Shown one piece after another: positions 4,848-63,846 of a stretch of 64,000 nt of DNA. Source of the stretch: an uncultured Gemmatimonadales bacterium. Lineage in GTDB: Bacteria; Gemmatimonadota; Gemmatimonadetes; Gemmatimonadales; Gemmatimonadaceae. The DNA lies in contig CAWKNZ010000003.1 of the NCBI GenBank assembly GCA_963851265.1, positions 216,014-280,013 on the forward strand, written 5' to 3'. Every line of letters begins with the position of its first letter. Within the stretch, counting starts at the first letter, position 1. The position numbers and the translations under genes are program-made. The notes under the pieces were generated by a model. The model was not told the DNA's origin, did not search any database, and was given only the letters and a program-made list of their open reading frames with translations.

Positions 4848-5873
4848 ATGCCCGTCCGGTTCACCACCGCTCGTCGCGGCACCCTCCGCGCGTCCGCCGC
4901 CCTCGCCGCCGCCTGCGCATTCGCGGCGTGCACCGACGGCGCCACCGCCCCGTCGGCCAGCAGCAATCTGTCGCCCGACGGCCCCTCGCTGAGCGCGGCG
5001 CCCGAGCTCAACCCCGGTGTGCGCCACGTGCACCACGTGCGCGACTACAGCGCGACCCACAACGCCGGGACCGGGACGGGCATCTCGTACCACGGCGGCG
5101 CGCTGCTGACCGCGCAGACCAACGTCGCGGCCGTGTACTGGGGCGGGAGCCCGATCTATACGAACGGCCCCGCCGCGGGCACGCACGGCGCCGGATCGAC
5201 CGACGGGTCGCTCGTCGGCTTCTTCCTGAGCCACATCGGCGGCTCGCCGTACTTCAACATCAACACGACGTACTACAACGCCTCCGGCACGCACGTGGCG
5301 AACGTCGTCAACTACACGCAGTACTGGGCGGCCAACACGAGCGTGCCGGCGTCGGGCGCGAGCGTCACCGACGCGCAGATGGTCGCCCTGCTGCAGGCCG
5401 GCATCAACAGCGGGGCCCTCACGTACGACGCCAGCACGGTCTACGCGATCTTCACGGCCGGCGGGGTGAACCTCGGCGGCGGGTTCGGGACGCAGTACTG
5501 CGCGTACCACACGACCGGCACCGTCACGGTGAACGGCGTGTCGCGTTCGGTGATCTACGCCGCGATGCCCTACAACAACTCGCAGCCGTCGGCGTGCACC
5601 GCCGGCACTGGCGCGCCTAACGGCGACCCCGGCGCGGACTACGAGGTGACCACCCTCGTCCACGAGATCGAGGAGAGCACCACCGACTACCTCGGCAACG
5701 CCTGGTACGACCGCTCGGGCAACGAGAACGCCGACAAGTGCGCGTGGAACTTCGGCGCCACGGCCAGCGCCACGAACGGCGCGAAGTACAACATCACGAT
5801 CGGCGGGAAGAACTTCCTCGTGCAGCAGAACTGGGTGAACGCGGGGACGGGCGGCTGCGCGCTGAAGTACTGA
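4848..5873 (+). CDS. Phosphate-induced protein 1/EXORDIUM-like secreted lipoprotein
   Basis: Lipobox FAAC; ISYHGG, YCAYH, APNGDPG, HEIEE..TD, AWY...ENADKC, FLVQQNW motifs. Confidence 0.7.
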   Translation: MPVRFTTARRGTLRASAALAAACAFAACTDGATAPSASSNLSPDGPSLSAAPELNPGVRHVHHVRDYSATHNAGTGTGISYHGGALLTAQTNVAAVYWGGSPIYTNGPAAGTHGAGSTDGSLVGFFLSHIGGSPYFNINTTYYNASGTHVANVVNYTQYWAANTSVPASGASVTDAQMVALLQAGINSGALTYDASTVYAIFTAGGVNLGGGFGTQYCAYHTTGTVTVNGVSRSVIYAAMPYNNSQPSACTAGTGAPNGDPGADYEVTTLVHEIEESTTDYLGNAWYDRSGNENADKCAWNFGATASATNGAKYNITIGGKNFLVQQNWVNAGTGGCALKY

Positions 5874-5874
5874 C

Positions 5875-5929
5875 GGGCTGAAGTTCCGAAGGGCTGAAGT
5901 TCCGAAGGGCCGAAGTTCCGAAGGGTTGA
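5875..5929. repeat. 16-bp tandem repeat GGGCYGAAGTTCCGAA, about 3.4 copies
   Basis: Units start at 5875, 5891 and 5907, with a partial unit at 5923. Confidence 0.9.
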
Positions 5930-5992
5930 CGAGCCCGACGTCGGGGATGCAGGGGCTGCAGCACGGGCCTCGGCTCCCCGACGTCGGGCTCG
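5930..5992. terminator. 18-bp perfect inverted repeat (terminator- or REP-like)
   Basis: CGAGCCCGACGTCGGGGA (5930-5947) pairs with TCCCCGACGTCGGGCTCG (5975-5992); downstream of the Phi-1-like gene. Confidence 0.55.
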
Positions 5993-6057
5993 AACGCTTT
6001 CACGCCCCCGTCCCGGGCGAGCGCATCGGGCCCGCCTCATGCGTGACGCACGACGCC

Positions 6058-6354
6058 ATGAGCGCCTCATCCGTGCACGTCGAACACCGCCCCGACGACC
6101 ACCGCTTCGTTGCCGACGTGGCCGGCGGCGAGGCCGTTCTCGTCTACCAGCGCCTCGCCGACGGCGAGCTCGACCTCCAGCACACGATCGTGCCCGAGGA
6201 AGCGCGCGGCGGTGGAGTGGGCGACGCGCTCGTCCGCGCCGCGGTCGACTACGCACGACGCGACGGGGTGACGCTCATCCCGACCTGCCCGTACGTGGCC
6301 GCCTGGCTGGCGCGTCATCCGAAGGAGCGGGCGGTCTTTTCCGACGACGAGTAG
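6058..6354 (+). CDS. Small GNAT N-acetyltransferase (YjdJ-like)
   Basis: HTIVPEEARGGGVG and IPTCPYV motifs. Confidence 0.88.
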   Translation: MSASSVHVEHRPDDHRFVADVAGGEAVLVYQRLADGELDLQHTIVPEEARGGGVGDALVRAAVDYARRDGVTLIPTCPYVAAWLARHPKERAVFSDDE

Positions 6355-6464
6355 GCCGCGTTGCAGGCGGCGGCCGGCGGACCCCGCCGGCCGGCCGCAA
6401 CTTCCGCCGAAGCGGCGCCGTACGGCTGGTCGCCGTCCTCCTCGCCCCGCTACCCCGCCGACCG

Positions 6465-8466: not shown

Positions 8467-9678
8467 GTGACCACTTCGACGCTCCGACCGACCCCGCGTA
8501 CGCTCCCGCTGTTCGACCCTGCGCCGGCGGAGGCCGGCCCCGCGGCCGCGGGGGGCAAGCCCGGCGTGCGGCACCGCTGGATGCCCGACCGCGTGCTGTT
8601 CACGCGCGACGCGCTCGCCGAGCGCTGGGGGTGCCGCATTCACGACCGCGTCGCCGCGTTAGGGCTGCACGTCGAGGCGCTCCGCGGCAACCGCCTGCCG
8701 AGTCTTGCGGGCGCGGACGAGCGGGCGACGTACCGCCTGGCCAAGCGCACGCTCGCCGTCGTCAACGCGCCGGCCGGACAGCTCAAGCTGTCGCCCATCC
8801 CGCCGTCGGCCGACTGGCAGTTCCACCTCGCGCAGGGCTGCCCGGCCCATTGCCACTACTGCTACCTCGCGGGCTCGCTCGCCGGGCCGCCGGTGGTGCG
8901 CGCGTACGCCAACCTCGACGCGATCCTCGGCAACCTGGCCGGCTACGCGGGGCAACGCACGGGCGGGCGCGCCGCCGCCGAGTGGGCCGACGGCGGCGCG
9001 GACCCGGACGGCGGCCGCGCGCTCACCACGTTCGAGGCGAGCTGCTACACCGACCCGCTCGCGCTCGAGCACCTCACCGGATCGTTAGGCGCGGCGGTCG
9101 AGCGCTTCGGGACGGACCCGGCGCTCGCCGGCGCGCGGCTGCGCTGGACGACCAAGTTCTCGTCGCCGGCGCTCGTCGCGCCGCTGCTCGACCTGCCGCA
9201 CGCGGGGCGCACGCGTTGCCGCGTCAGCCTCAACGCCGACCCCGTCGCGCGCCGGTTCGAGGGCGGCACGGCGACCGTCGCGGAGCGACTCGCCGGGGCG
9301 ACGCAGCTCGCCGGGGCGGGCTACCCGGTGGGGCTCGTGCTCGCGCCCATCATGCCGGTCGAGGGGTGGGAGGGCGAGTACGGCGCCCTGCTCGACGCCG
9401 CGCGCGCCGCGCTGCCGCCGGAGGCGCTCGCGCCGGGGACGCGCCTGACCGTCGAGTGCATCACGCACCGCTACACCGAGGGCTCGCGCGACGTGCTGCG
9501 CGGGTGGTACCCGAACACCGCGCTCGAGATGGACGACGAGAAGCGGGCGGCCAAGCGGACGAAGTTCGGGAACGCGAAGTATGTGTATCCCCGCGACGTG
9601 ATGGGGGAGTTGAAGGCGTGGTTCACGGCCGCGGTGCGGGCGCGGTGGCCGGAGGCGGCGTTGTTGTACTGGACGTGA
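8467..9678 (+). CDS. Spore photoproduct lyase family radical SAM protein (SplB-like)
   Basis: CPAHCHYCYL triad, FEASCYTD, C-terminal KRTKFGNAKYVYP. Confidence 0.85.
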   Translation: MTTSTLRPTPRTLPLFDPAPAEAGPAAAGGKPGVRHRWMPDRVLFTRDALAERWGCRIHDRVAALGLHVEALRGNRLPSLAGADERATYRLAKRTLAVVNAPAGQLKLSPIPPSADWQFHLAQGCPAHCHYCYLAGSLAGPPVVRAYANLDAILGNLAGYAGQRTGGRAAAEWADGGADPDGGRALTTFEASCYTDPLALEHLTGSLGAAVERFGTDPALAGARLRWTTKFSSPALVAPLLDLPHAGRTRCRVSLNADPVARRFEGGTATVAERLAGATQLAGAGYPVGLVLAPIMPVEGWEGEYGALLDAARAALPPEALAPGTRLTVECITHRYTEGSRDVLRGWYPNTALEMDDEKRAAKRTKFGNAKYVYPRDVMGELKAWFTAAVRARWPEAALLYWT

Positions 9679-10984
9679 GGGGTGCCCCGATCGCGGACCC
9701 GGGCACCACGCCATCCCCCGCCCCTCTCGCCAGTATCGCCGCGACCGTCATGTCCGCGGTCACGTTGACTAACGTGTTGAACACGTCGGGTATCGCGTCC
9801 GCGGCGATCAGCAGCCCGACCCCTTCGAGCGGCAGCCCCACCGCGAGCAGCACCGGCGCGGTCACCACGAACAGCCCCCCGCTCGGGATCCCCGGGTTGC
9901 TGAAGCTCATCGCGATCGTGACGAGCGTCATCGTCGCGATCTGCCCCGGGCCGAGCGGTACGCCGTAGAGGTGGGCGAGAAAGAGCGGCCCGGCGAGGTC
10001 GGCGACCGGCGTGTTGAGCTTGAAGGTCGAGACCGCGAGCGGCAGCACGAAGCCCGTCACCGCGGGGCGGTCGCCTAACGTGTCGCGGAAGCCGGCGATG
10101 AGCGCGGGGAGCGAGGCGAGCGACGAGCGCGAGCTCACCGCGACCGCCTGCGCCGGCAATACGGCGCGCGCGAAGGTGCGCAGCGGGACGCGGCCGAACA
10201 GCGCCGCGACGGGGTAGCACAGCAGCATCACCACGGTCGCGAGCCCGCAGAGGATCAGCACGTAGCCGCCCACCGCGCCGATCGCCCCCGCGCCGAGGTC
10301 GCGGCCGAGTCCGGCGGCGAGCGCGAGCACCCCGATCGGCGTGAGCGCGAGCACCCAGCCGACGACGACGAGCATGGCGTCGCTCACGGCGCGGAAGAAT
10401 CCCGTGACCAGCGCGCGGGGCTCGGGGGCGAGGCGCGTGACGGCGGCCGCGAACAGCAGCGTGAAGACGATGAGCGGGAGCATCGCGCCGTCGACCGCGG
10501 CCTTGATCGGGTTGACCGGCACGAGCCCGGTCAGGAAGCCGCCGATCGTGGGCACCTCGGCGGGCGCGCTGGCCGCGGCGCCCGCGTGCGCGCGGAGCGC
10601 GGCGGCCGCGGACGCGTCCACCGGCACGTAGCGGAAGAGCGCCGGCGCGGCGAGCGCCGAGATGAGCGCGCAGCCGACGAGCAGGACGACGAACCAGACG
10701 AGGGCGCGCCCGCCGAGTCGCCCCACGGCGCGCACGTCGGCGACGCCCGCGACGCTCGTCACGAGCATCGAGACGACGAGCGGCACGAGCGTCATGCGGA
10801 TCGCGTTCACCCACAGCGTGCCGAGCGGCGCGAGCGCTTCGACGGCCGCGCCGAGGGCGCGACTGCCGGAGCCGGCGGCGACGGCGCCGAGGGCGGTGCC
10901 CGCGACGAGCGCGAGCAGGGCGAGCACGGTCGCGCCGGGCAGACGCCGGGCGCGGACTGGGGGTTGGGCGGCAGATTCCGGCAC
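9623..10984 (-). CDS. Dicarboxylate/amino acid:cation symporter (DAACS)
   Basis: Multiple TM segments; [27 protein letters not shown] motifs; start uncertain. Confidence 0.88.
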
Positions 10985-11502: not shown

Positions 11503-12726
11503 GTGACGGGGGTTGGCGCCGTGCTCGTCGGCGCGTTCATCGCGCTGCAGCTGCTCGCGCTCGCGCGCGTGCTGTGGCGACTGCTGCCCGGACTCGTGCG
11601 GACGCCGCCGGTGACGCCGCTCGTCGACGAGGCCGACGCGCGGTGGGCCGGGCTCGGCGGCGCGGCCGGCGACGGCGTGCGCGTCACGGTCATGGTCGCG
11701 ACGATGAACGAGGCCGCGCGACTCGGGCCCTGTCTGGACGGCCTCGCGCGGCAGGGCGCGACGTTGGCCGAGGTGCTCGTCGTGGATTCGCGCTCGACTG
11801 ACGGCACGCGCGCGCTGGTCGAGGCCGCGGCCCGGCGTGACGCGCGCGTGCGACTGCTCACCGATCCGCCGCTGCCGCCGGGGTGGGTGGGCAAGGTGTG
11901 GGCGCTCGAACACGGCCTGCAGCACGCGACCGGCGACTGGGTGCTCGGCGTCGACGCCGACACGGCGCCCGCGCCCGGCATGGTGGCCGCCGTCGTCGCG
12001 GCGGCGGAGGCGTTCGGGCTCGACGTGGTGAGCTTCGCGCCGCGCTTCGCGGGGCAGTCGCCGGGGGAGCGGTTCATCCAGCCGGCGATGCTCGCCACGC
12101 TCGTCTACCGGCTCGGCGCACCAACGCCGCGACCGAGCACGCCGAGCGACGTGCTCGCGAACGGACAGTGTTTTCTCGCGCGGCGCGACCTGCTGGTGCG
12201 CCACGGCGGGTACGGGCCCGCACGCGCGAGCTGGGCCGACGACGTCGCGCTCGCGCGCCACCTCATGCGCCGCGGTGCGCGCGTCGGGTTTCTGGACGGC
12301 GCGCGCCTGTACGACGTGCGCGCCTACGCCTCCGCGCGCGAGGCGTGGCGGGAGTGGGGGCGGAGCTTCGACCTCGCCGACGCGACCGCGCCGGCGCGCC
12401 AGGCGCTCGACCTGGCCGTCGTCACGCTCGCGATGGGGGCGCCGCCGCTCGTCCTGGCGGGCGCGCTCGCGTGGGCGGCGGCGGGCGGGGGGGCGGGGGG
12501 CACGTTCGGCAGTGCGTTAGGCGCAGCGCTCGTCGTCGTCAACGCGGTTCTGCTCTCGGTCCGGCTCGGCGTGTTGGCGGCGACGCGCGGGTCGTACGCG
12601 CGCCGCGGGTTCCCGTACTGGTGCAGCCCGCTCGCCGACCCGGCGGCGACGGCGCGGCTCTGGCTCAGCACGCTCCGCCGGCCGCGCGCGTGGCGGGGGC
12701 GGGCGTTCGCGCTGGGCGCGCCGTAA
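11503..12726 (+). CDS. GT2 glycosyltransferase, CruG-like carotenoid glycosyltransferase
   Basis: VVDSRSTDGT, GWVGK, DADT, ANGQCFL, DDVALAR, EWGRSFDL motifs. Confidence 0.75.
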   Translation: MTGVGAVLVGAFIALQLLALARVLWRLLPGLVRTPPVTPLVDEADARWAGLGGAAGDGVRVTVMVATMNEAARLGPCLDGLARQGATLAEVLVVDSRSTDGTRALVEAAARRDARVRLLTDPPLPPGWVGKVWALEHGLQHATGDWVLGVDADTAPAPGMVAAVVAAAEAFGLDVVSFAPRFAGQSPGERFIQPAMLATLVYRLGAPTPRPSTPSDVLANGQCFLARRDLLVRHGGYGPARASWADDVALARHLMRRGARVGFLDGARLYDVRAYASAREAWREWGRSFDLADATAPARQALDLAVVTLAMGAPPLVLAGALAWAAAGGGAGGTFGSALGAALVVVNAVLLSVRLGVLAATRGSYARRGFPYWCSPLADPAATARLWLSTLRRPRAWRGRAFALGAP

Positions 12727-12797: not shown

Positions 12798-15700
12798 CTA
12801 CTGCCCGCCCTCCCGCCGGCCCCACGTCGGCGGCGGGGGCTCGTTCATCCGCCGGTCCACCGGGTGCTGGGCGAGCAGGCGCAGTGCTTCCTGAACCGCG
12901 CGTTCCAGCTGCGGGTCGCGCCCCGACGCGACCTCCCTGGGCCAGTTCTCGACCGCGACGTCGGGCGCGACGCCCTCGTTCTCGATCGCCCAGTGCCCCT
13001 CGCGCGTGAAGAAGCCGCCGCGCGGCGCGATCATCGACCCGCCGTCGAGGAAGAGCGGCGTGTCGGCCGTGTGCACCAGGCCGCCCCACGTGCGCTCGCC
13101 GACGAGCGGGCCGATGTGGCGGTGGCGGAACATGTAGGGCATGAGGTCGCCGCCCGAACCGGCCATCTCGTTGATGATCATCACCTTGGGCCCCCAGATG
13201 CCCGCCGAAGGGCTCGTGAAGGGGACGCGCTGGTTGATGGCCGAGTTGAAGTAGCCGTCGAAATCGCGCTGCAGCAGGTCGATGATGTAGTCGGCCGCGG
13301 AGCCGCCGCCGTTGTAGCGCTCGTCGATCACGGCGCCCTGGCGGTCCTGCTGGGCGAAGTAGTAGCGGTTGAAGCTCTGGTAGCCCGGCTGCCCCGTGTT
13401 GGGCAGGTAGACGTAGGCGAGCTTGCCGCCGGACAGCGAGTCGACCGCGCGCCGGTTGTGCTCCACCCACGCGCGCGTGCGCAGCCCGGCCTCGCTGGCC
13501 ACCGGGAGCACCGTGACGCGGCGCGCGCCGTCCATGCTGGGGCGCGCGTTGACGAGCAGCACCGTCTGGCGGTTGGCCGTGCCGTCGAGCAGGCGGTAGA
13601 CGTCGTCGGTGCCGGCCAGTTCGGCGCCGTTCACCGCGAGCAGGTAGTCGCCGGGGCGCACGTCGATGCCGGGGCCGGCGAGCGGGGCGCGCAGCTCGGG
13701 GTTCCAGCTCTCGGCGTCGTAGATCTTGCGGATGCGGTAGCGGCCGTTCTCGACGGCGAGGTCGGCGCCTAACAGTCCGACGCCGGGGGCGCCGGTGCCG
13801 GTCTCGGGCAGGTCGCCGCCGCGCACGTAGGAGTGCCCGATGGCGAGCTCGGAGCCCATCCAGTCGAGCAGGTAGTTGAGGTCGGCGCGGTGCATGACGT
13901 ACGGCAGGAGCGCGCCGTAGGTGCGTCCGACGGCCGGCCAGTCGGCGCCGTGCGCGTTGCGGACGTACAGGTAGTCGCGCTCGTTGCGCCACCCCTCGTG
14001 GAAGATCTCCGCGAACTCCGCCTTCGGGTCGACCCACATCCGCAGGGCGACGGCGAGGCGCCCCTTGGCGGCGTCGGCCGGGGTCGCGGCGGGCGGCGCG
14101 CCCGCGTCGACGACGAAGAGGGTGGTGCCGCCCGCGCCGGCGGCCCCTGCCCCGCCGCCCGCGGCGGGCGGCGCGGCGGGGGTGCGGTAGAGCAGCTTCT
14201 GCCCGTTGGCGCTGACGACGAACTCCGCGACGTTGGGCGCGAAGGCCACCGCGCGCCGGTCGCGCAGCGTGTAGCGGTGGAGCGTGCCGCCCGGCGCCGG
14301 CGCGGCGGCGGTGCCCGCGGGGGTCAGGGTCTCGAGGAAGAACACCGTGCCCGGCGCGCCGCTCCGGAGGTCGGCGTAGTCGCGCGCGGCCACGCCCGGC
14401 ACGGGGAGGATGCGCTGGCGCATGCCGTCGAAATCGATGCGGACCGGGCGCGTGCCGTTGGGCGCGGGCGTGCGCGCGCTGTCGCGGTTGGCGGCCGCGG
14501 CGCGCGCGGTGTCGGCGCGCGTGCTGTCCACGCGCGCGCGGGCGGCCGCGCGGCGCGCCTGGTCCTCCTCGCGCGGCGGCTCGCCCGGGCGCTGCGGCGC
14601 GGGCGCCGCGCCCGCGAGGCTCGCCTCCTCGTCGCTCTCGGGGAGGAGCGGCGAGGGCTCGGCCTTCTGCAGCACCGCCATGTAGAGCGCCCGCGTCACG
14701 GGCCGCTCGTAGCTCGACATGTCGAGCCACTGCGAGGTGAGCGCGTAGTTGGTCGACGCGAGGAACCACAGGTACTTGCCCGACGCGTCCCACGCGGGCG
14801 CGACGGCGTCGGCGAGGCCGTCCGTGATCTGGCGCTTCTCGCCCGTCTCGACGTTGGCGACCACCACCGCGCGGTAGAGCGACGGCAGGCGCTTCGCGTA
14901 GGCGAGCCAGCGCCCGTCGGGGCTCCACACCGGCTCCAACTCGCGCCGCGGCACGAGGTACGTGTCCTGGTCGATCACGGTCGCCTTCCCCGACGCGACG
15001 TCGAGCGACCAGATGCGGAAGTCCGTGTCGGTGTAGGCGATGCGCCGCCCGTCGGGGCTCCAGGCCGGCGTGTAGTAGTGCGTGGGGTTGGGCAGCGCGA
15101 TCTCGCGCGCGGGCGACACGCCGTCCTGGGGCGCGATGTAGAGGCGGTACTCGCCCGACTTGTCCCCGAAGTACGCGACGAAGCGCCCGTCGGGCGACCA
15201 CACCGGGTCGCGCTCCGCCGACCCGCTCGACCGGGTCAGGTTGCGCGCGTCGCCCTTCTCCGCCGGCAGGGTGAAGATCTCGCCGCGCGCCTCGACCGCG
15301 GCGCGACGCCCCGTGGGCGAGATGGCGAGCGACGTCACGCGCCCCGAGACGTCCTTCCACTGCGGCATCATCCACGCGAAGTCGCCGGCCGCGGTGATGG
15401 GCACGACGCGCTCGCGCCCGCTCGCCGGGTCCAGCTCGTGGATCACGCCGGCCTGCTCGAACACCACTGCGTTAGGCGTCGCGTCGAGCGACTTGACGTC
15501 GAAGTCGCGCCCGTGGTAATGCGTCACCTCGCGCACCTGCTTCGACCGCGTGTCGTACGCCCACACGTTCTGCACCCCGTCGCGGTCCGACAGGAAGTAC
15601 ACGGCGTCGTTGCCCACCCACACGGGGTCGAGCTCCTTCGAGTCGGTCCACGGCACGGTCTCGACGGCCATCGTCTGCAGGTCGAGGATCCACACCGGGC

Positions 15701-16894: not shown

Positions 16895-17445
16895 CCGCCG
16901 ACGCGGGGGCTGGCGCCGTTCCGCGCCTCACGACCGAGCGCCTGCTGCTGCGCGGCTTCGCGCCACGCGACGTGGAGGCGTACGTCGCGATGATGGCCGA
17001 CCCCGCGGTCACCCGGTACCTCGGCGACGGGCGGCCGCTGTCGCGCGCGGACGCGTGGCGGCAGCTGGCGCTCATCATCGGGCACTGGGGGCTGCGCGGC
17101 TTCGGGCTCTGGGCCGTCGAGGAGCGCGCCACAGGGACGCTCGTCGGGCGCGTCGGATGCTACGAGCCCGACGGATGGCCCGGGTGCGAGGTCGGGTACG
17201 TGCTCGCCCGCCCGTTCTGGGGGCGCGGGTACGCGACCGAGGGCGCGCGGGCGGCGCTGGAGTACGCGCGCGGGGTGCTCGCGCGCGACCGCGTCATCAG
17301 CCTCATCCACCCCGACAACGTCGCCTCGGCGAGCGTCGCGACCCGCCTCGGCGCGACGGCCGACGAGACGATCGAGCTGTTCGGCCGGCCGGCGGCGGTG
17401 TACGCGTACCCGACCGGGTCCGGCGCGCCCGCGGCCATGCGTTAG
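16891..17445 (+). CDS. RimJ/RimL-type GNAT N-acetyltransferase
   Basis: LTTERLLLR, EVGY, WGRGYATE, N.AS..VA.RLG motifs. Confidence 0.88.
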   Translation: MTADAGAGAVPRLTTERLLLRGFAPRDVEAYVAMMADPAVTRYLGDGRPLSRADAWRQLALIIGHWGLRGFGLWAVEERATGTLVGRVGCYEPDGWPGCEVGYVLARPFWGRGYATEGARAALEYARGVLARDRVISLIHPDNVASASVATRLGATADETIELFGRPAAVYAYPTGSGAPAAMR

Positions 17446-18332
17446 GCGGTCGCGGTCGCGTACCCGGCGAGCGCCTCGGGGTACGCGGCGACCACCCCGG
17501 GCGGCGCGGCCGCCGGCGCGCCCGCGAGCATCGCCTCGAGCATCAGCGCGTTGGTGACCGCCTGCCCGCGGTAGTGGTTGTTGGTGACCACGTACACCTC
17601 GGGCGCGGCCGCGGCGACCTCGCGCGTGCGCTCCGCCCACGGCGCGAGCTCGGCGGCCGAGTAGAGGTAGTCGTAGCGCGCCTCCACGCCGGCGTCGGGG
17701 CGCCACCAGTCCTCGTAGTTGCGGCCGTGGAGCCGCACGTAGCCGACCGGCGCGGTGGCCGTCGCGCTCGGGCCTAACGACCGGGCGAAGAGCGGCTGGT
17801 CGACGTTGACGAAGCCGATCCCGCGCTCGGCGAGCCCCCGGTAGAAGGCGGGCACGTTCCACGACGCGTGGCGCACCTCGAGCGCGAGCGGGTACCCCGC
17901 CCCGCCGCGGCCGAACGCCCGCGCGACGTCGTCGAGCCACTCGCGGCCGGCGTCGTCGCGCTTGAAGGACCAGGGGAACTGGACGAGCACCGCGCCGAGC
18001 CGTCCGGCGTCGGCGAGCACGTCGAAGCCGCGGCGCACGGCGTCGACGTCGGCCGGGGTGAAGGCGGCGTCTCGCTCGTGCGTGAACCGCTGCCAGAGCT
18101 TCGCGGTGAAGCGGAAGCGGTCGCGGGCGCGCTCGCCGGCTGCGGCGCGCTCGACCCAGCCCCCGGCGGCCGCCGGGGAAGCCGGGCGGTAGAAGGTGCT
18201 GTTCACCTCGACGGTGTCGAAGTACCCCGCCACGTAGGTGAGCGGGTCGAAGTCGCGCGGGCGGGGCGCCGGGTACACGATGCCGTCCCAATCCTTGTAG
18301 GACCACCCGGCGGGGCCGATGCGGACGGTCAT
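17442..18332 (-). CDS. DUF72 (YecE-like) protein
   Basis: IGPAGWSY.DW, EVNSTFY, QFP.SF, EVRHASW, YVRLHGRN, YDYLY. Confidence 0.9.
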   Translation of the reverse strand: MTVRIGPAGWSYKDWDGIVYPAPRPRDFDPLTYVAGYFDTVEVNSTFYRPASPAAAGGWVERAAAGERARDRFRFTAKLWQRFTHERDAAFTPADVDAVRRGFDVLADAGRLGAVLVQFPWSFKRDDAGREWLDDVARAFGRGGAGYPLALEVRHASWNVPAFYRGLAERGIGFVNVDQPLFARSLGPSATATAPVGYVRLHGRNYEDWWRPDAGVEARYDYLYSAAELAPWAERTREVAAAAPEVYVVTNNHYRGQAVTNALMLEAMLAGAPAAAPPGVVAAYPEALAGYATATA

Positions 18333-18493: not shown

Positions 18494-21400
18494 ATGGCCA
18501 CCCGCCTTCCGTCCGCCGCCTTCACCACCCGCGCGCTCGCCGTCGGAGCGCTCGCAGCCTCCGCCGCGGCCTCCGCCGCCGGCGCGCAGCCGGCCGAGCC
18601 CCTCGACTCGGCCTACACCGCGCAGATCCGCGCGCTGACGCCCACCGACCCGCACTGGAAGTTCTCCACCGAGTTGGTCGACCACCTGCCCGCATCGGCC
18701 GCGGTCCCGACCCCGCTCAAGTTCCTCGGCTACGTCCCGGGCACCGTCGGCCGGCTGAGCAAGGTGGCCGACATCAACCGGTACCTGCGCGCGGTCGCGG
18801 CGGCGTCGCCGCGGGTGAAGGTGTTCTCGTTAGGCACCAGCGAGGAGGGGCGCGAGATGCTCGCCGTCGCGGTCGCCGACGAGGCGACCATCGCCCGGCT
18901 CGACGACTACCGCGCGATGGCCGGGCGGCTCGCCGACCCGCGCGGGCTCGCGGACGCGGAGCGCGCGCGGCTGATCGCGCAGGCCAAGCCCATCTACTGG
19001 CTCACCGGCTCCATCCACTCCCCCGAGACGGGGAGCCCCGAGATGCTGATGGAGCTCGTGTACCGGCTCGCGGTGAGCGACGCGCCCAACGTGCGGCGCG
19101 TCCGCGACGGCGTGATCACGCTCGTCACCCCCGTGACCGAGACCGACGGGCGCGACCGCGCCGTCGACGCGTACGCGCTCGAGCGCCAGCTCAAGGTCGG
19201 GCGCGGCGGCGTGCCGCTCGTGTACTGGGGCAAGTACGTCGCGCACGACAACAACCGCGACGGGCTGGTGCTGAGCCTGAAGCTGTCACAGCACATCAAC
19301 GACGGCGGGCTGTACTGGCACCCGACCGTGCTGCACGACCTGCACGAGAGCGTGCCCTTCCTGTACGCGAGCACCGGCACCGGCCCGTACAACGACGAGT
19401 TCGACCCGGTGGTGGTCGACGAGTGGCACACGCTCGCCTACCAGGAGATCACGGAGCTCACCAAGCGCGGGCTGCCGGGCGTGTGGACGCACGGCTTCTA
19501 CGACGGGTGGGCGCCCAACTACATGTTCGGGATCGCGCAGTTCCACAACGCGATCGGGCGCTTCTACGAGACGTACACGTCGTCGGGCGCCGACTGCCAC
19601 GTCGTGAACCTCCCCGCCGCGCAGGTCTCGCGCGAGTGGGACCGGCCGAGCCCGCCGGTGAACGGGGTCAAGTGGTGCATCCGGAGCAACATCAACTACC
19701 AGGAGTCGGGCGTGCTGGTCGCGCTCGACTACGTGGCGCGCAACAAGGAGACGTTCCTCGAGAACTTCGCGCTCAAGGCGCGGCGCATGGTCGACCGCGG
19801 GCGGACCTCGGCGCCCTACGCGTTCGTCATCCCGCGCGGGCAGCGGCGCGCGGCGGAGGCGGCGGACCTCGTCAACTACTTCCGCCGCACCGGGAGCGAG
19901 GTGCAGGTCGCGACCGGCGACTTCACCGTCGGGACGATGCCCGCGGTGGTCGAACGCGCCGCGCCGGCGAACCCGAACAGCGCGGGCGGCACGGGGCGGC
20001 GCGGAAGCGAGACGCTCGCGCGCGGCGCCGACGCCGACACGACGCACCGCGCCCGGCGCGACAGCGCCGGCGCGGCGTCCACCGTTCAGGTCCACGCCGG
20101 CGACTGGGTCGTGCGCATGGACCAGCCCTACACGGCACTCGTCCGCACCGTGCTCGCCGTGCAGCGCTACCGCCCCGACGACCCGTCGCCCTACGACGAC
20201 ACCGGGTGGTCGCTCGACAAGCTCCGGCACGTGACCGTCCACACGGTCAACGACTCGTCGGTGCTGACCCGCCCCATGCAGCGCCTGACCGTCGAGGCGC
20301 GCGTGGCCGGCGCGGTCGCGGGCGCCGGGCCCACGCTCGCCGTCGCGCCGTTAGGCGACTGGCGGTCGGCGACGCTTCCCTGGCAGGTCGCCGGCGCGCG
20401 CGTGACGGTGGCCGACACCGCCTTCGCCGCCGGCGGCGCGAGCTTCCCGGCCGGCACGGCGCTCCTCGCCAACACGCCCGCCACGCGCGCCGCGGTCGAG
20501 CGGTTGGGGCTCGCCGCGACGGCGCTCGCCGCCGCGCCGGCCGTGCGCGCGCACGCCGTCGCGCTGCCGCGCATCGCCTTCGTGCACACCTGGCTCGAGA
20601 CGCAGAACGAGGGCTGGCTGCGCCACGCACTCGACGAGATGGGCGTGCCGTTCACCTACGTCTCGACGCAGCGCCTGCGCGACCCGCGCTTCCTCGACCG
20701 CTTCGACGTGGTGCTCTTCCCGCACGCGAACGGCACGTCCGCGCAGCTCGTCAACGGCCGCCCGATGGTCGGGCCGCCGATCCCGTGGCGGCGCTCCGCG
20801 ATCACGCCGAGTTTCGCGGGCACCCCCGACTCCACCGACGACCTGCGCCCGGGGATGGGCTACGAGGGCGTGGCCGCACTCCACCACTTCGTCGAGCGCG
20901 GGGGCCTGCTGGTGACCGAAGGGAACTCGGTCCGCCTTCCGGTCGACATGGGCTTCAACCCGACGGTGAGCGTGGTCGCCACGCCGCGGCTCGTCGCGCA
21001 CGGCGCGGTCTACCGCGCGCAGGCGGTCGAGCGCACGCACCCGGTGCTCTACGGCTACGAGGCCGGCTCCATGCCCGTGTACTTCAACCAGGCGCCGGTG
21101 TTGGCGGTGCAGGCCAACGAGAACGCGGCGGCCGACGCGCGCACCCGCGCGGTGATGCAGAACGTGGCCGACACGGCCATCACCGGCGCGACCGAGCGCC
21201 AGCGCGCGCGCGTGGTGCTGCGGTTCGACCCGAACGCCGATTCGCTGCTCGTGTCGGGACAGCTGGAAAACGGTGGAGAGCTGGCGGGCAAGGCGGCGGT
21301 GGTCGACGCGCCGTTGGGCCGCGGGCACGTGATCCTCTTCGGCATCCGCCCGATGTGGCGCTACGAGACGCAGGGGAGCTACGCGATGGTGCTCAACGCG

Positions 21401-22732: not shown

Positions 22733-23932
22733 ATGGCCCGCCTCCCAGTGCTCGAGTCAGACGCCGAGACGCTCGACCTGTTCGATCCCCCGCCGGCGGC
22801 GCCACTCCCCGCCGCGGCGGACGCCCCGGAGAGCGCGGCCGAGGCGCTCGCCGCGCCGGCGGGCGGATCGCCGACGGGGCGCCTGCTCCGCGTCGGCCGC
22901 ATCTACCTCGAGCCCGGGGTGGCCGCCTACCCGCGCGGCCGCGAGATCCTCGCCCGCTTCCCCGACGCGGAGCGCGTCGAGGTGCCGTCGCACTGGAACA
23001 TCCCGGGGCTGCACGGCAACGAGGGGCTCGTGAAGGACTGGACGCGGGTGAAGCGCGACACGCTCGTGTTGGGCGTTCGCAAGTCGCTCTCGTGCCGGCC
23101 TAACGGGCGGAGCGCGGACTACATCGCGCCCGGACTGTCCAACGGCTGCGCCATGGCCTGCGCGTACTGCTACGTCCCGCGCCGCAAGGGCCACGCGAAC
23201 CCGATCACCACGTTCGTGAACGCCGACGAGGTGCTCGGCTTCCTGGAGCGCCACGCGCGCCGGCTCGGCCCCAAGCGCGAGCCCAACCAGGTGGACCCCG
23301 AGGCGTGGGTGTACGACGTCGGCGAGAACGGCGACTGCTCGGTCGACGCGCTCGTGAGCGACAACGTCCGCGACACCGTCGCGCGCTTCGGCGCCCTGCC
23401 CAACGTGAAGGCGAGCTTCGCCACGAAGTACGTGAACCCCGCCCTGCTCGACTACGACCCGCGCGGGCGGACGCGCGTGCGCTTCTCGCTCATGCCGCCC
23501 CGCGTGGCGCGCGTGCTCGACGTGCGCACGTCGCCCGTCCCGCGGCGGCTGGCCGCGGCGTCGGACTTCGTGGCCGCCGGGTACGAGGTGCACCTCAACT
23601 TCTCGCCGGTGGTCGTCTACGACGGGTGGCTCGACGACTGGCGGGCGCTGCTGCGAGACGTCGACGACGCACTGTCGCCCGCGGCCAAGGCGCAGCTCGC
23701 GTGCGAGGTCATCTTCCTCACGCACAACGAGGCGCTGCACCTGGTGAATCTCGGCTGGCACCCGGCCGCGGAGGCGCTGCTCTGGACGCCCGACAACCAG
23801 GAGGCCAAGGAGAGCGAGCAGGGGCAGCGCAACGTGCGGTACCGGACCGGGACGAAGGGGCGCTACGTCCGGGCGTTGGGCGAGCTGTTAGGCACGGAGC
23901 TGCCGTACTGCCGCGTGCGGTACGCGTTCTAG
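22733..23932 (+). CDS. Second spore photoproduct lyase family radical SAM protein
   Basis: SHWNIPGLHG, NGCAMACAYCYV, YDVGENGDC, C-terminal CRVRYAF. Confidence 0.85.
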   Translation: MARLPVLESDAETLDLFDPPPAAPLPAAADAPESAAEALAAPAGGSPTGRLLRVGRIYLEPGVAAYPRGREILARFPDAERVEVPSHWNIPGLHGNEGLVKDWTRVKRDTLVLGVRKSLSCRPNGRSADYIAPGLSNGCAMACAYCYVPRRKGHANPITTFVNADEVLGFLERHARRLGPKREPNQVDPEAWVYDVGENGDCSVDALVSDNVRDTVARFGALPNVKASFATKYVNPALLDYDPRGRTRVRFSLMPPRVARVLDVRTSPVPRRLAAASDFVAAGYEVHLNFSPVVVYDGWLDDWRALLRDVDDALSPAAKAQLACEVIFLTHNEALHLVNLGWHPAAEALLWTPDNQEAKESEQGQRNVRYRTGTKGRYVRALGELLGTELPYCRVRYAF

Positions 23933-24696: not shown

Positions 24697-24751
24697 TGCG
24701 GACGTCCTGTCGTGGTCCTGCGGTGGACCGGTCTCGCGTAAGTTAGGCCGG

Positions 24752-26021: not shown

Positions 26022-26672
26022 TCAGGCGACCGCGCCGCCCGCCCCGCGCCGCACGACCCACGTCATCATCGTGCGGCGCCCGTGCACGACGGTGCTCTTG
26101 ATGGGGTCGAGCAGTTCGCCGCCTAACGAGTCCGTCGCGGCGCGCAGCGTCGCCTCGTCGGCCAGGAACCACTCGGCGCCGTCGGGGAGGAGGTAGCGGC
26201 CGCGGCCGAGCGGGTGCACGTGGTTGTCGAGCCCCGTGCGGCCGGCGAGACGGCAGAAGAGCAGGCCGCCGGGGCGGAGCACGCGCCACGTGCCGCGCAG
26301 CATCGCCTCGAAGTGCGCGGCGTCGCGCGCGAAGTGCAGCACCGCGCTGCTGACGACGACGTCCGCGATGGCGTCGGGGAAGGTCATCGCCTCCACGGGC
26401 TCCGCGCGGAACGCGTCGACCGGCGTGTCCGCGGCGGCGGGGGCGAGCTCCGAGGCGAGGCGTCGCACGTCCGCGATCGCGGCGGGGTCGGCGTCGGCGC
26501 CGAGCACGCGGTAGCCCTCACGGAGGAAGTAGACGAGGTTGCGGCCGCTGCCGCAGCCCGCCTCGAGGATCGTGCTGCCCGGCGGGATGTTGCCGCGCAG
26601 GAGCTGGTCGAACAGATAGACGTCGATCGCGCCGAAGGCGGCGCGCAGATCGGCCACGGGCTCGGGCTCCAC
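26022..26672 (-). CDS. Class I SAM-dependent methyltransferase
   Basis: EAGCGSGRN, AVLHFA, LRPGG. Confidence 0.88.
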   Translation of the reverse strand: MEPEPVADLRAAFGAIDVYLFDQLLRGNIPPGSTILEAGCGSGRNLVYFLREGYRVLGADADPAAIADVRRLASELAPAAADTPVDAFRAEPVEAMTFPDAIADVVVSSAVLHFARDAAHFEAMLRGTWRVLRPGGLLFCRLAGRTGLDNHVHPLGRGRYLLPDGAEWFLADEATLRAATDSLGGELLDPIKSTVVHGRRTMMTWVVRRGAGGAVA

Positions 26673-35731: not shown

Positions 35732-35788
35732 ACGGCGGTCGCCGGCACGCGCGCGATCCTCCCCCGCCACTCCCCCGGCCCGCAGCGC

Positions 35789-43176: not shown

Positions 43177-43198
43177 CGCGGCGCGTCAGGCGCTCGCG

Positions 43199-51754: not shown

Positions 51755-52198
51755 TCAGCCCGCCGCCGGCGGCGCGTCGATCTCCTCGATCCGCCGCTGG
51801 TGCCGGCCGCCCTCGAAGGGCGTTTCGATCCATGTGCGGACGATCCCCTCGAGGTCGCCCTCCGCGATCAACCGCTCGCCTAACGACAGCACGTTCGCGT
51901 CGTTGTGCTGCCGGCCGAAGCGCGCCGCGTCCACGTTCCAGCAGAGCGCGCAGCGCACGCCGGGGACGCGGTTGGCGACGATCGCCTCCCCGTTGCCCGA
52001 CCCGCCGAGCACCACGCCGCGCTCGAAGTCTCCGCGCGCGACCGCCTCGGCGGCGGGGCGGATGAACAGCGGGTAGTCGACCGGCTCTTCCGAGTTGGTG
52101 CCGAAGTCGGTCACGTCGTGCCCCCAGCCGCGGAGCATGGGGACGATGAGCGACTTGTAGCGGTAGCCCGCGTGGTCCGAAGCGATGACGATGCGCAT
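51755..52198 (-). CDS. rpiB: Ribose-5-phosphate isomerase B
   Basis: SDHAG, VDYP, GGSGNG, HNDANVL, FEGGRH.RR. Confidence 0.93.
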   Translation of the reverse strand: MRIVIASDHAGYRYKSLIVPMLRGWGHDVTDFGTNSEEPVDYPLFIRPAAEAVARGDFERGVVLGGSGNGEAIVANRVPGVRCALCWNVDAARFGRQHNDANVLSLGERLIAEGDLEGIVRTWIETPFEGGRHQRRIEEIDAPPAAG

Positions 52199-53459: not shown

Positions 53460-53530
53460 GGCGTTGCACGGTCAGGCGGGGGATGGCCGATCACGGACAC
53501 GCGCGACCCTCTCGCCTAACGCCCCCACCA

Positions 53531-55636
<2,106 letters not shown>

Positions 55637-55685
55637 CCCACGAACCTACACCGGGCAACCCGAACTGCCATGCCGCGGCGCGCTC

Positions 55686-56399
55686 CTAACGCTGCGGCTT
55701 GCCGCTGCCGCGCCCCGCGCTCGGCGACTTGGCCTCGGGCGCCGAGGCGTCGGCGGCCGACTTCCCGCCCTGCGGCACCATCGAGATGTACGCCGTCGAC
55801 GGCTCCTGGCCGGGTGGCACCGGCCGCGGCGTGCGCTCGCCCTTGGGACCGAGCGCGTGGACGTAGCGGTACAGCGCGCGCAGGTCCGCGTCGTTCATCG
55901 CGGCCGTGTTCATCCACGGCATCGGCGGTCGGCCGTGCCCACCGTCTGCCGTGGTGAGGATCTGGACCCACCGGTCCTCGGGGATGCGGCTCACCACCAG
56001 GCGCAGGTTGGCCGCGTACGTCGTCCCCCACGGGCCGCGGTAGCCGATCCCGCTCCCGGCGAGGCGGTCGGCGTCCGGCGTCTTCCCCATCGTCTCGTCC
56101 CAGTTGCTCGTGTGACAGTCGTTGCAGCCGCCCACGACGGCGAGGTACGCGCCCGCGACGGAGTCGCTGGTCGCCGTCACGCGCGGGCGCGAGCTGTCGG
56201 GCTGCGGTGCGCGCGTTTGCGGAGTGGTCTGCGGCGCGACCGCCGGCCGAGCCGGCGCGGGGCGGGCTGCAGCGAGCACGCCGGCGCCGGCGAGCAGCGC
56301 CGCCGCAGCCGTGGCGAGCGGGCGGCGCGCCGGGGCACGCATCCACAGGGAGTGGACGCGCGCGAGTGCCGCCGTGGAGCGGCGCGTGGACGGACGCAT
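55686..56399 (-). CDS. c-type cytochrome
   Basis: CNDCH haem motif, GPWGTTYAANL, PPMPW; start uncertain (56399 or 56342). Confidence 0.82.
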   Translation of the reverse strand: MRPSTRRSTAALARVHSLWMRAPARRPLATAAAALLAGAGVLAAARPAPARPAVAPQTTPQTRAPQPDSSRPRVTATSDSVAGAYLAVVGGCNDCHTSNWDETMGKTPDADRLAGSGIGYRGPWGTTYAANLRLVVSRIPEDRWVQILTTADGGHGRPPMPWMNTAAMNDADLRALYRYVHALGPKGERTPRPVPPGQEPSTAYISMVPQGGKSAADASAPEAKSPSAGRGSGKPQR

Positions 56400-61689: not shown

Positions 61690-62163
61690 ATGTCCTATTA
61701 CTCCACCGCGTCCACCGCCATGGAGCACGACACTGCTCGCCGGTTGGAAGCGCTCGATCCGTCGCACGACCGCCTCGCCCGTCGGCTGAGCGACATCCGG
61801 CTCGACCACGGCCGTCTGGTGCGCGACCTGGCCCCTGCGGTCCCGGCGTCGGGCCACGATGGCACGCCCGACGCGCTCGAGGTGGACGGCCAGAGGCCGA
61901 CGCCGGCCGAGGGCGAGGCGGCGGCCGTCGTGCTCGACCCGGCGCGGGAGGCGCTCGACCGCACGTGTCTCACGGTCAAGCGCATCGCGCACGACATCGG
62001 GATGCCCCGCGCCACGCTCGAGGCCTACCGGCTCGGCACCCGCCGTATGCCGCACGGCGCGCGCGTGCGGCTCGGCAAGTACCTCGCCGCGCACGCCGCC
62101 ATGCTGGACGGCCTCGCGCAGGCGCTCATGGCGCCACCCCCCTCCAAATCGTCCGACGTCTGA
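61690..62163 (+). CDS. Hypothetical protein with C-terminal HTH-like segment
   Basis: TVKRIAHDIGMPRATLEAYRLGTRRMP resembles an XRE-type HTH. Confidence 0.55.
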   Translation: MSYYSTASTAMEHDTARRLEALDPSHDRLARRLSDIRLDHGRLVRDLAPAVPASGHDGTPDALEVDGQRPTPAEGEAAAVVLDPAREALDRTCLTVKRIAHDIGMPRATLEAYRLGTRRMPHGARVRLGKYLAAHAAMLDGLAQALMAPPPSKSSDV

Positions 62164-62172
62164 CGTGCCGGG

Positions 62173-62793
62173 TCAGCCGTCGGCCGCGGGCGCCCCGGGC
62201 GGCCGCGCGTCGGTGGCGGACACGTCCGCGGCCGGCGCGTCGGCCGCCAGTCGCACCTCGCGAAAGAGGTCGGCCAGCGCGTCGAGCTGGTAGTGCGCGT
62301 TGAGTCCGCTCGGGTTGGGCAGCACCCACACTCGTGTGCGGCCTAACGGCTCCGACTGCGGGCCGAGCGCGGCTTTCGGCCGGACGAACGCGGTGCGGTA
62401 TGCGCCCACGCCCAGTACCGCGAGCACGCGGGGCCGGTAAACCTCTACCTTCTCGCGCAGCGCGCGCCCACCCGCGACGTACTCCTCGGGCGCCAGCTCG
62501 GCCGCCGTCGCGGTCACGCGCGGCACGACGTTGGTCACCCCGTAGCCGCGCTCCAGCAGCGTGCGCTCCTCACTCGGCGCGAGCAGGCGGTCCGTGAACC
62601 CGGCGCGGTAGAGCGCGGGCCAGAACCGGTTGCCCGGCCGCGCGAAGTGGTGCCCGGTGTAGGCGGTGTAGAGCCCCGGGTTGATGCCGCAAAAGAGCAC
62701 GCGGAGCCCGGGCGCGATCACGTCCTCGACGCGCACGTCGGGCCCCGACGCGGCGAGCAGGTCCGCGCGGCTCGGCCGCCGCACCGTCGTCAC
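62173..62793 (-). CDS. mug: G/U mismatch-specific DNA glycosylase
   Basis: CGINPG, HHFARPGNRFW, GVTN, LPNPSGLN. Confidence 0.9.
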   Translation of the reverse strand: MTTVRRPSRADLLAASGPDVRVEDVIAPGLRVLFCGINPGLYTAYTGHHFARPGNRFWPALYRAGFTDRLLAPSEERTLLERGYGVTNVVPRVTATAAELAPEEYVAGGRALREKVEVYRPRVLAVLGVGAYRTAFVRPKAALGPQSEPLGRTRVWVLPNPSGLNAHYQLDALADLFREVRLAADAPAADVSATDARPPGAPAADG

Positions 62794-62800
62794 CGCGCGT

Positions 62801-63055
62801 TCAGCGCCCGATGGGTGACGTGGCGCTGTGGTCGGTGATGTCGCCCGCACCCTTGGCGCGCGCGCAGTGGGCCGAGCAGTAGAAATCCTGGTTGGCGTCG
62901 ACGCCGTGCCCGAGCACCTTCACGCCGCAGTTGGCGCAGACGGGCGCGAGCTTGTGGATGGCGCACTCGAAGCTGTCGAAGACGTGCCGGTTGCCGGCGG
63001 TGACGACCTCGAAGGCGAGATAGTAGTCGTTGCCGCACACTTCGCATCGGGCCAT
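62801..63055 (-). CDS. Small Cys/His-rich metal-binding protein (prokaryotic metallothionein-like)
   Basis: CEVCGNDY, FDSFECAIH, CANC, GHG, CSAHCA. Confidence 0.8.
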   Translation of the reverse strand: MARCEVCGNDYYLAFEVVTAGNRHVFDSFECAIHKLAPVCANCGVKVLGHGVDANQDFYCSAHCARAKGAGDITDHSATSPIGR

Positions 63056-63297
63056 GCCGGGCGCCTCGTGGGGAGTTCGGGTCGAAGGTCGGGATTGCCG
63101 GAAGCGGGCGGCCGGCGCAAGAAGGACGCCGATCAGGCGCCGCGGGCCGCCGGTCCCGGGCGCGTCGCGCGCGGCGGCGGACGAGAGGCGAACCGCGTCG
63201 GCGTGGCGTGCGACGGTCGGCGGAGGCGGCGACCGATGGTACGTTCGGCGCACGTTTCCTGCCGGTCCTGACGCTTCACCCTGCCACTCCCGGTTCG

Positions 63298-63846
63298 ATG
63301 ACCGTTCCCGCCGCGCCAGCGCTCGATCCGCTCCGCTACCCCACGGGCAAGTGGGCTCCGCTGCCCGCCGACACGCCGCCCGCGGTGATCGCCGCCCTCG
63401 TCGACCGCATCGCCGCGACGCCGGCCGCGTTGCGCGCCGCGGTCAACGGGCTGAACGATGCGCAGCTCGACACGCCGTACCGCGAGGCGGGGTGGACGGT
63501 GCGGCAGGTGGTGCACCACGTGGCGGACTCGCACATGCAGGCGTACGCGCGCTTCAAGAAGGCGCTCACCGAGGACGTGCCGCCGATCATGACGTACGAG
63601 GAGGCGCGATGGGCGGAGCTGCCGGATTCGCGGCTGCCGGTGGGGCCGTCGCTGGCGCTGCTGGACGCCCTGCACGCGCGCTGGGACGTGGTGCTGCGGG
63701 CGTTAGGCCCGGCGGAGTTGGCGCGGGCGTACCGGCATCCGGAGATGGGCGAGGTGCCGCTGCGGACGGCGGTGGCGATCTACGCGTGGCACGGGGGGCA
63801 CCACGTGGCGCACGTGGTGGAGCTGAGGGGGCGGATGGGGTGGTGA
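63298..63846 (+). CDS. YfiT/BstA-like DinB-superfamily thiol transferase
   Basis: LRYP.GK, LDTPYR..GWTVRQVVHHVADSH, YAWHG.HH.AH. Confidence 0.9.
   Translation: MTVPAAPALDPLRYPTGKWAPLPADTPPAVIAALVDRIAATPAALRAAVNGLNDAQLDTPYREAGWTVRQVVHHVADSHMQAYARFKKALTEDVPPIMTYEEARWAELPDSRLPVGPSLALLDALHARWDVVLRALGPAELARAYRHPEMGEVPLRTAVAIYAWHGGHHVAHVVELRGRMGW

Follow-up and report, generated by a model that had tools for sequence, protein, structure and literature searches.

A hyper-abundant and regularly spaced DNA word in the genes of Gemmatimonadaceae, and its possible use as a self-DNA tag

The 64,000-nucleotide stretch of DNA analysed here (the window) lies at C3:216014-280013 in the 4.6-Mb, 12-contig assembly of a Gemmatimonadaceae soil bacterium with 73% GC (the source genome, G000). 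Its genes, stop codons and spacers carry many copies of the heptamer GTTAGGC (the word), which reads CGTTAGGC when C stands before the first G and YGTTAGGC in its general form. An earlier note on this DNA had listed 30 GTTAGG sites, 28 of them GTTAGGC, and every coordinate stands as given. These numbers are far above expectation, since 100 dinucleotide shuffles of the window, whose GC content is 73-80%, gave 2.18 ± 1.49 copies of GTTAGGC (maximum 8) and 4.98 ± 2.18 of GTTAGG. The base preceding the G was C at 25 of the 30 sites, T at four, A at one and G at none, in agreement with the pyrimidine reported at 29 of them, and 30 of the 59 TTA and TAA trinucleotides on the forward strand (12 of 22 TTA and 18 of 37 TAA) lay inside the word, as the claim that it holds about half of them had it. 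Independent gene calls, made with a codon-model open reading frame picker that found 3,638 genes and 87% coding sequence in the source genome, reproduced the earlier split into 20 Leu-Gly, three Pro-Asn, one CTA-AC, four stop-codon and two intergenic sites, including the copy at 17441 that supplies both stops of a convergent gene pair. They also agreed with the note that an AddAB-like machine is encoded in the window, with AddA- and AddB-like genes at 28561-33929.

The whole source genome contained 1,762 copies of the word (885 on the forward and 877 on the reverse strand), or one per 2.6 kb, preceded by C in 1,396 cases (CGTTAGGC), by T in 243, by A in 54 and by G in 69. Against Markov models of order 1, 2 and 3, GTTAGGC was the most over-represented heptamer, with observed-to-expected ratios (O/E) of 11.0, 18.3 and 13.9, and CGTTAGGC was the most over-represented octamer (16.9, 27.8 and 24.0). 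Neither was prominent in this genome under maximal-order models, where sub-words made up almost solely of the word itself take up the signal, and orders 1-3 were used instead. The top heptamers under the maximal-order models were AGGCGCT, AAGCGCT, AGCGGCT and AGCGTCT, each one letter off the palindrome AGCGCT. The context bias of TTA codons noticed in the window held genome-wide, as GGC followed 999 of the 1,277 TTA codons, and about 31% of all TTA trinucleotides (1,848 of 6,001) fell within GTTAGG. The result is an exact eight-letter word of about 1,800 copies that occupies genes, stop codons and spacers, contrary to the codon habits of its host. Literature searches returned no paper describing it, the matches to the word itself being unrelated, and the phylum was named in none of the matches listed for Gemmatimonad* with uptake sequences. 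The Ssn nuclease system (PMC11893778) was rejected as a match, since it concerns, in the available text, 30-bp intergenic hairpins, a different thing.

The word was placed at the level of DNA rather than protein. We defined openings as places able to hold the word without a change of protein and counted those used in the source genome. The sense opening [SPTA]-Leu-Gly was used in 780 of 4,687 cases (16.6%) and the antisense opening X-Pro-Asn in 196 of 1,431 (13.7%), followed by antisense [CRSG]-Leu-Thr (70 of 1,855, 3.8%) and sense Val-Arg-[LPHQR] (24 of 3,452, 0.7%); a further 185 copies lay at stop codons and 296 were intergenic. Sense, antisense and intergenic copies had the same flanks, with C (73-85%) or T (8-17%) at position -1 and G (about 52%), A (22-29%), C (16-19%) or T (4-5%) at position +7, and no conservation was seen beyond these two positions around the copies of this genome. 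The unit is therefore YGTTAGGC with a weak ninth position, and the best explanation is a double-stranded DNA signal, 5'-(C>T)GTTAGGC(G>A>C, rarely T)-3', whose function does not depend on orientation. At a few intergenic places (C2:11210-11230, C7:601245-601273 and C2:116117-116147), inverted pairs of the word formed perfect hairpins between convergent genes.

Use of the word depended on the gene: at [SPTA]-Leu-Gly openings it was 7% among the tenth of genes with the poorest codon adaptation and climbed to 21-24% among those with the best, and the long word-free stretches included the ribosomal-protein region of C2. The longest of them, C1:182876-227962 (45 kb, none of 66 openings used), holds gidA/mnmG, parA, parB and mnmE; dnaA sits in a different word-free stretch of this contig. 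Exclusion from the origin region was considered and dropped, since the corresponding gidA-parAB region carries the word in two related genomes, G004 and G012, and no fixed chromosomal domain is therefore involved. This stretch was more diverged from the sister species (78-80% identity) than the window (82-88%), and may derive from a replacement by DNA of a word-poor donor.

Neighbouring copies avoided each other. In our null, used sites were drawn at random among the openings 500 times, their totals in each class and each fifth of codon score being fixed. Only five neighbours in the source genome were closer than 200 bp, against 49.8 ± 6.5 at random, and 52 were closer than 500 bp, against 116 ± 9.3; gaps above 8 kb numbered 153, against 171 ± 7.4. 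The same repulsion acted between strands, as none of the 196 antisense Pro-Asn copies lay within 200 bp of a used Leu-Gly copy (13.0 ± 3.3 expected) and nine lay within 500 bp of one (30.6 ± 4.5 expected), so that two rare codons sharing an mRNA are not its cause. Compared with a plain Poisson expectation, spacings below 200 bp were also few in G012 (16 against 28.5), Gemmatirosa (3 against 8.2) and G004 (11 against 18.7), with hardly any deficit in G001 (10 against 13.8).

The word was also maintained between species. We aligned about 87 kb of G004 and 83 kb of G001, two sister species, to the source genome, with third codon positions 69-70% identical. Sites of the source genome were retained in 23 of 40 and 21 of 37 cases, as opposed to 24-27% for control heptamers in equal codon phase and 31-40% for xCTCGGC, so that the conservation check proposed earlier found the word kept about twice as often as control heptamers. 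In the three-genome alignment (73.9 kb) there were 74 sites, 12 present in all three genomes, 24 in two and 38 in one, and GTTGGGC was the commonest alternative state. At seven single-genome sites the other two genomes shared the same heptamer, which differed from the word by one substitution in two cases, by two in four and by three in one; such multi-substitution gains on branches of 7-9% divergence suggest a directional push, uncalibrated as this estimate is. In codon-pair counts, the ratio of CTG-GGC to CTC-GGC was 0.15-0.27 in word-rich and 0.45-0.82 in word-poor samples, and it became 0.61 in the source genome when TTG-GGC and TTA-GGC were added to CTG-GGC. The deficit is thus balanced by the TTG and TTA pairs, which implies the path CTG > TTG > TTA, two transitions. 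Altogether, the similar shares of sense and antisense openings, the common flanks, the retention above control and the repulsion between opposite strands uphold the earlier inference that selection or drive acts at the DNA level. The sites of the window are given in Table 1. From 28561 to 37171, on the reverse strand, an AddA-like gene, an AddB-like gene, an unassigned gene and RmuC stand in a row and contain seven copies in total.

Table 1. Copies of the word and of its GTTAGG variants in the window, with their gene context
Element	Coordinates	Strand	Context
Word	5615..5621	-	antisense CCT-AAC (Pro-Asn), + gene 4848-5873
GTTAGG variant	8658..8663	+	7th base not C; G-TTA-GGN (Leu-Gly), gene 8467-9678
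Word	9084..9090	+	sense G-TTA-GGC, gene 8467-9678 (SPL family)
Word	10073..10079	-	sense TTA-GGC, - gene 9623-10927 (SDF symporter)
Word	12516..12522	+	sense TTA-GGC, gene 11521-12726 (glycosyltransferase 2)
Word	13767..13773	-	sense TTA-GGC, - gene 12798-16343 (tricorn-like protease)
Word	15471..15477	+	antisense CCT-AAC (Pro-Asn), - gene 12798-16343
Word	17441..17447	+	double convergent stop: TAG of + gene 16891-17445, TAA of - gene 17442-18332
Word	17772..17778	-	sense TTA-GGC, - gene 17442-18332 (DUF72)
Word	18829..18835	+	sense TTA-GGC, gene 18494-21505 (M14 peptidase domain)
Word	20350..20356	+	sense TTA-GGC, gene 18494-21505
Word	23098..23104	-	antisense CCT-AAC (Pro-Asn), + gene 22748-23932
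Word	23887..23893	+	sense TTA-GGC, gene 22748-23932 (SPL family)
Word	24742..24748	+	intergenic, genes 23971-24696 (-) and 24752-26014 (+)
Word	25489..25495	+	sense TTA-GGC, gene 24752-26014 (YdjM)
Word	26121..26127	-	sense TTA-GGC, - gene 26022-26672 (small-molecule methyltransferase fold)
Word	28323..28329	-	sense TTA-GGC, - gene 27762-28454 (DUF2071)
Word	29486..29492	+	antisense xGC-CTA-ACx, - gene 28561-31983 (AddA-like helicase-nuclease)
Word	29728..29734	-	sense TTA-GGC, AddA-like gene 28561-31983
Word	31510..31516	-	sense TTA-GGC, AddA-like gene 28561-31983
Word	34282..34288	-	sense TTA-GGC, - gene 33934-35601
Word	35787..35793	-	TAG stop of - gene 35789-37171 (RmuC)
Word	36584..36590	-	sense TTA-GGC, RmuC gene
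Word	36944..36950	-	sense TTA-GGC, RmuC gene
Word	43171..43177	-	TAA stop (GCC-TAA-C) of + gene 42226-43176 (GHMP kinase)
Word	51878..51884	-	sense TTA-GGC, - gene 51755-52198
Word	53514..53520	-	intergenic, 11 bases past the end of - gene 53531-55636
GTTAGG variant	55685..55690	-	TAG stop of - gene 55686-56180
Word	62341..62347	-	sense TTA-GGC, - gene 62173-62793 (UDG superfamily)
Word	63702..63708	+	sense TTA-GGC, gene 63385-63846 (DinB superfamily)

The distribution among relatives was patchy. We compared 31 relatives and called word-rich those in which CGTTAGGC reached at least 1.5 times the reversed control word. Ten qualified, namely all five genomes of the genus, G008, G012 (the richest, with 6,360 copies), G017, G018 and G030, the last from another family, while most word-poor relatives held CGTTAGGC at one tenth of the control word. 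In a scan of 251 genomes of the phylum, word-rich genomes numbered six of 54 in the own family, three of 113 in a second family (one genus), none of three in a third and none of 81 in nine further families, and several of the 251 were intermediate in word content. Unpublished genomes entered these sets as word-poor rows only (G011 among the 31; G078, G117 and G198 in the scan). In the cultured Gemmatirosa kalamazoonensis, 50 kb of plasmid 1 carried 42 copies against 1.2 expected, which made it the top word, and 50 kb of plasmid 2 carried 25. On a quick rpoB tree of 25 genomes (G005 and G017 omitted as partial; no rpoB obtained from G002, G008, G013 and G014), the word-rich or word-poor label had to change at least three to four times. 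The rpoB gene itself held no copy in 17 of 17 word-poor genomes, ten in G012, one or two at shared positions in the genus, one in G030 and none in G017 and G018; two positions coincided between genera, too few to separate common descent from convergence. A different kind of repeat was seen in G029, from another family, where C4:100001-300000 contained short intergenic arrays of a GGTAAGA/GGTGAGA heptamer, often as facing pairs 60-560 bp apart. GTAAGAG had 60 matches in those 200 kb against about two expected, and these arrays are distinct from a dialect of the word.

Several explanations were weighed for this DNA-level signal. It is very improbable that methylation or repair created the word, in the way that HIP1 (highly iterated palindrome 1, GCGATCGC) goes with methylases or CCWGG with Dcm and Vsr. 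HIP1 of cyanobacteria is, like the word, a hyper-abundant octamer within genes whose primary function is unknown; in the available parts of two sources, it is tied to orphan methylases (PMC4390886) and linked to transformation efficiency (10.1101/2024.09.10.611283). However, HIP1 is palindromic and contains methylase sites, whereas the word lacks such symmetry, and neither a methylation nor a methylase fits it. The single-molecule real-time (SMRT) methylome of the word-rich Gemmatirosa kalamazoonensis comprised only RGATCY, ATGCAC and CCAGN7TCA (PMC3974934), and on this basis N6-methyladenine methylation of the word is largely excluded. C5 methylase (PF00145) was found in three of the 31 genomes and in none of the five of the genus, Vsr in three of 31, all word-poor, and in none of the ten word-rich, and no transition neighbour of the word was seen to be depleted in the source genome (O/E 0.54-2.25); 5-methylcytosine with Vsr repair is, on these counts and searches, likewise largely excluded. 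Both the methyltransferase site and the biased repair that the earlier note had entertained, examined here as very-short-patch repair, are thus disfavoured, the checks of SMRT modification and methyltransferase co-occurrence having given no methylated word and no PF00145 in the genus. Least credible of all is a neutral, context-dependent mutation bias with no reader. The usual alternative state, GTTGGGC, is one transition away, and the depletion of CTG-GGC is about twice as strong in word-rich as in word-poor genomes, with TTG/TTA-GGC restoring the balance, as such a bias would have it; but it could not produce repulsion across strands, retention at twice the control, the same flanks in all classes, or the avoidance of poorly adapted genes and of the ribosomal-protein region, and plain mutation bias is largely excluded. 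A Chi-like control signal for the AddAB helicase-nuclease of the window, serving self-DNA protection and RecA loading, would suit the presence of the AddAB-like pair as well as the density and regular spacing of a signal to be met within a few kilobases, and Chi of RecBCD/AddAB is similarly short, asymmetric and found once per few kilobases. Chi is, however, polar with replication, and the word was not. No strand bias of word use was detected on any contig (C2, 0.138 on the forward against 0.155 on the reverse strand; C7, 0.155 against 0.148), C1, which contains dnaA and gidA-parAB, had 36 forward and 46 reverse copies, and on C2 the word ranked 116th of 3,111 strand-skewed heptamers. GC skew was flat in the source genome and too weak for exact replichore placement, and mapping replichores by skewed heptamers was abandoned, as these only follow gene orientation. 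The strand profile of the word on C2 turned at the same places as the profiles of the top-ranked skewed heptamers, where gene orientation changes. Replication polarity, and hence Chi or the FtsK-orienting polar sequences (KOPS), is largely excluded, which disfavours the Chi analogue of the earlier note. No comparable word was found among four word-poor relatives (200-kb samples), and an O/E of 11-28 achieved with the rarest codon exceeds the enrichment known for Chi; we regard the Chi-like reading as distinctly unlikely. A cytoplasmic DNA-binding protein that structures the chromosome or has another role, and that relies on landmarks at regular distances, could have the word as its binding site, which would agree with a word that is orientation-independent, evenly spaced, self-repelling at short range and present on both Gemmatirosa megaplasmids. 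No candidate protein is known for it, though, structuring proteins rarely need an exact octamer, many close genera with the same cell plan lack the word, and the 45-kb gidA-parAB stretch is word-free in the source genome but not in G004 or G012; we consider this explanation unlikely.

GTTAGGC and its complement GCCTAAC are, in addition, the attC R box of the integrons of this order (attC/attI core GTTRRRY, RYYYAAC), a point missing from the earlier note and an identity too exact to dismiss. In word-poor relatives the few copies were clustered in same-strand arrays about 550 bp apart, which are classical integron cassette arrays whose attC sites span 72-136 bp and read GCCTAAC...GTTAGGC. C stood before R' in 19 of 21 and six of six attC sites, and T before the other arm, on the opposite strand, in 17 of 19 and six of six, which echoes the genome-wide preference for C over T at position -1. 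The source genome has a cassette array of its own (C10:186001-206000, attC sites of 97-121 bp), and its intI-like gene (C6:3005-6044) is split into two parts that lie about 2 kb from each other. The reader could be IntI or another protein that recognises this R box, and the copies double-stranded attG/attI-like sites or raw material for attC. This rival, which we hold to be rather unlikely, draws on the identical octamer in classical arrays, on the matching preceding bases, on integron integrases above cut-off in 18 of the 31 genomes, on the abundance of the same word in three families, as expected of an old conserved specificity, and on the insertion of cassettes by IntI at double-stranded genomic sites, with the consensus GWT in the available part of the source (10.1101/2022.09.11.507474). 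Yet integrase presence did not follow word abundance (five of ten word-rich against 13 of 21 word-poor genomes): the richest genome, G012, had frameshifted integrase pieces only, G008 (93% complete) had none, and the gene is split in the source genome. Although the letters, including the preceding pyrimidine, are those of the integron core sites (attC R'/R'', attI R box, attG) and real arrays occur in G000 and across the order, more than 97% of the copies in the source genome are single and in genes, with no partner arm, hairpin or L box. No L box or second conserved half-site was found in their flanks, and only about 11 of 1,750 neighbouring pairs had attC-like geometry ('-+' pairs within 200 bp). 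Insertion at sites within genes would moreover be harmful, and integrases are not known to have a mechanism for multiplying their own site.

The reading that we rank first is that the word is a self-tag similar to the DNA uptake sequence (DUS) or uptake signal sequence (USS), kept by uptake or recombination drive; we propose it tentatively, by analogy and with a confidence that stops just short of even, with the integron-linked, Chi-like and structural readings next in line and the remaining rivals behind them. The analysis shows a signal that resides in DNA, is maintained, keeps its copies spaced and is phylogenetically patchy. Such data call for sequence-specific recognition of double-stranded or either-strand DNA, with a benefit or drive that levels off near one copy per 0.5-1 kb, and we infer that the reader belongs to DNA uptake or recombination. 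Of the analogues offered in the earlier note, the uptake sequence fits best. Like the USS of Pasteurellaceae (9-bp core) and the DUS of Neisseriaceae (10-12 bp), the word is short, exact and non-palindromic, with hundreds to thousands of copies in both orientations and no replication polarity. As with these sequences, it occupies permissive frames, stop codons and a few hairpin pairs (Neisseria terminators hold DUS pairs), is seldom found in highly expressed genes or in DNA that is new or poorly adapted, shows relatively even spacing and is common to related genera. The available text of one study describes USS and DUS as scarce in new segments and constrained genes, and their relatively even distribution as an expected outcome of drive (PMC7811141). 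In the proposed mechanism, a sequence-specific reader acts on the word, which is written wherever the coding permits and maintained over evolutionary time. The transformation pathway would favour fragments bearing the word, word alleles would thereby replace wordless alleles (molecular drive), and GC pressure together with codon selection would strip surplus copies and keep highly expressed genes word-free; one copy per about 0.5-1 kb seems enough, because extra nearby copies are lost. The source genome encodes ComEC, ComEA, DprA, a secretin and PilB, PilT and PilC. A ComEA-like gene lies beside pilB, pilT and pilC at C7:759936-764498, and likewise in G006, G028, G030 and G012, word-poor and word-rich genomes alike; this arrangement of genes is a hint of pilus-linked uptake of DNA throughout the order. 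In five genomes its neighbourhood contained no gene restricted to the word-rich ones.

Several observations weigh against an uptake tag. ComEC occurred in all 31 genomes, and the secretin, PilT, DprA and ComEA were also present in the word-poor G006 and G028; competence genes are equal in word-rich and word-poor relatives and therefore do not explain the patchiness, so that the co-occurrence considered in the earlier note did not emerge. The ComP-type receptor (PF16732), for which no homologue of the kind expected from DUS was found, had no match in the source genome and weak matches, unrelated to the word, in 13 of the 31 genomes, the sole match above cut-off being in a word-poor one; as pilins diverge fast, this negative is weak evidence. 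Drive models expect a graded halo of near-matches, whereas the one-mismatch core variants stood at O/E 0.14-2.25 in the source genome and seemed to form almost no halo, only position -1 tolerating change (T at 26-fold). The effect on the proteome was small, the O/E of the tripeptides being 1.12-1.14 in the genus and 1.48 in Gemmatirosa against 0.94-1.11 in word-poor genomes, compared with the doubling of tripeptide frequencies reported for USS in the available text (PMC2817400). No hyper-abundant word of their own ('dialect') was found in 200-kb samples of the word-poor G006, G015 and G028, and, unlike USS and DUS, the word had no dialects in four word-poor relatives. As a check for imported tracts, own-branch divergence around 33 gain-like sites was compared with the control and equalled it, a weak test at such divergence. 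The word also differs from USS and DUS in its letters, in belonging to another phylum (Gemmatimonadota) and in costing the rarest codon of a 73% GC genome. Finally, an uptake tag leaves the identity with the integron core unaccounted for. A reading that joins the two, to which we give only a slim chance, takes the word to be the integron R box in genome-wide use; some Gemmatimonadales would have a reader of IntI-like specificity, either descended from IntI or part of an uptake or recombination system adapted to the attC core. If this were true, self-DNA recognition and cassette capture would share one tag, and the 185 genes of the source genome that end in the word could gain half an attC, which could turn these bacteria into a source of new gene cassettes.

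To our knowledge, uptake-type self-tags are known only from two families of Proteobacteria, in one of which the reader is still unidentified. If the uptake reading is true, the word would be a third case, independent and very clean, in another phylum and in abundant soil bacteria. The existence of a cultured representative with a finished genome and a methylome would make the origin and the reader of such words, and their need for a benefit, testable. The word also distorts codon usage and the choice of stop codons and affects k-mer-based binning and the detection of horizontal gene transfer in these genomes. Its identity with the integron core raises a testable coupling of natural transformation, self-recognition and cassette capture in these bacteria.

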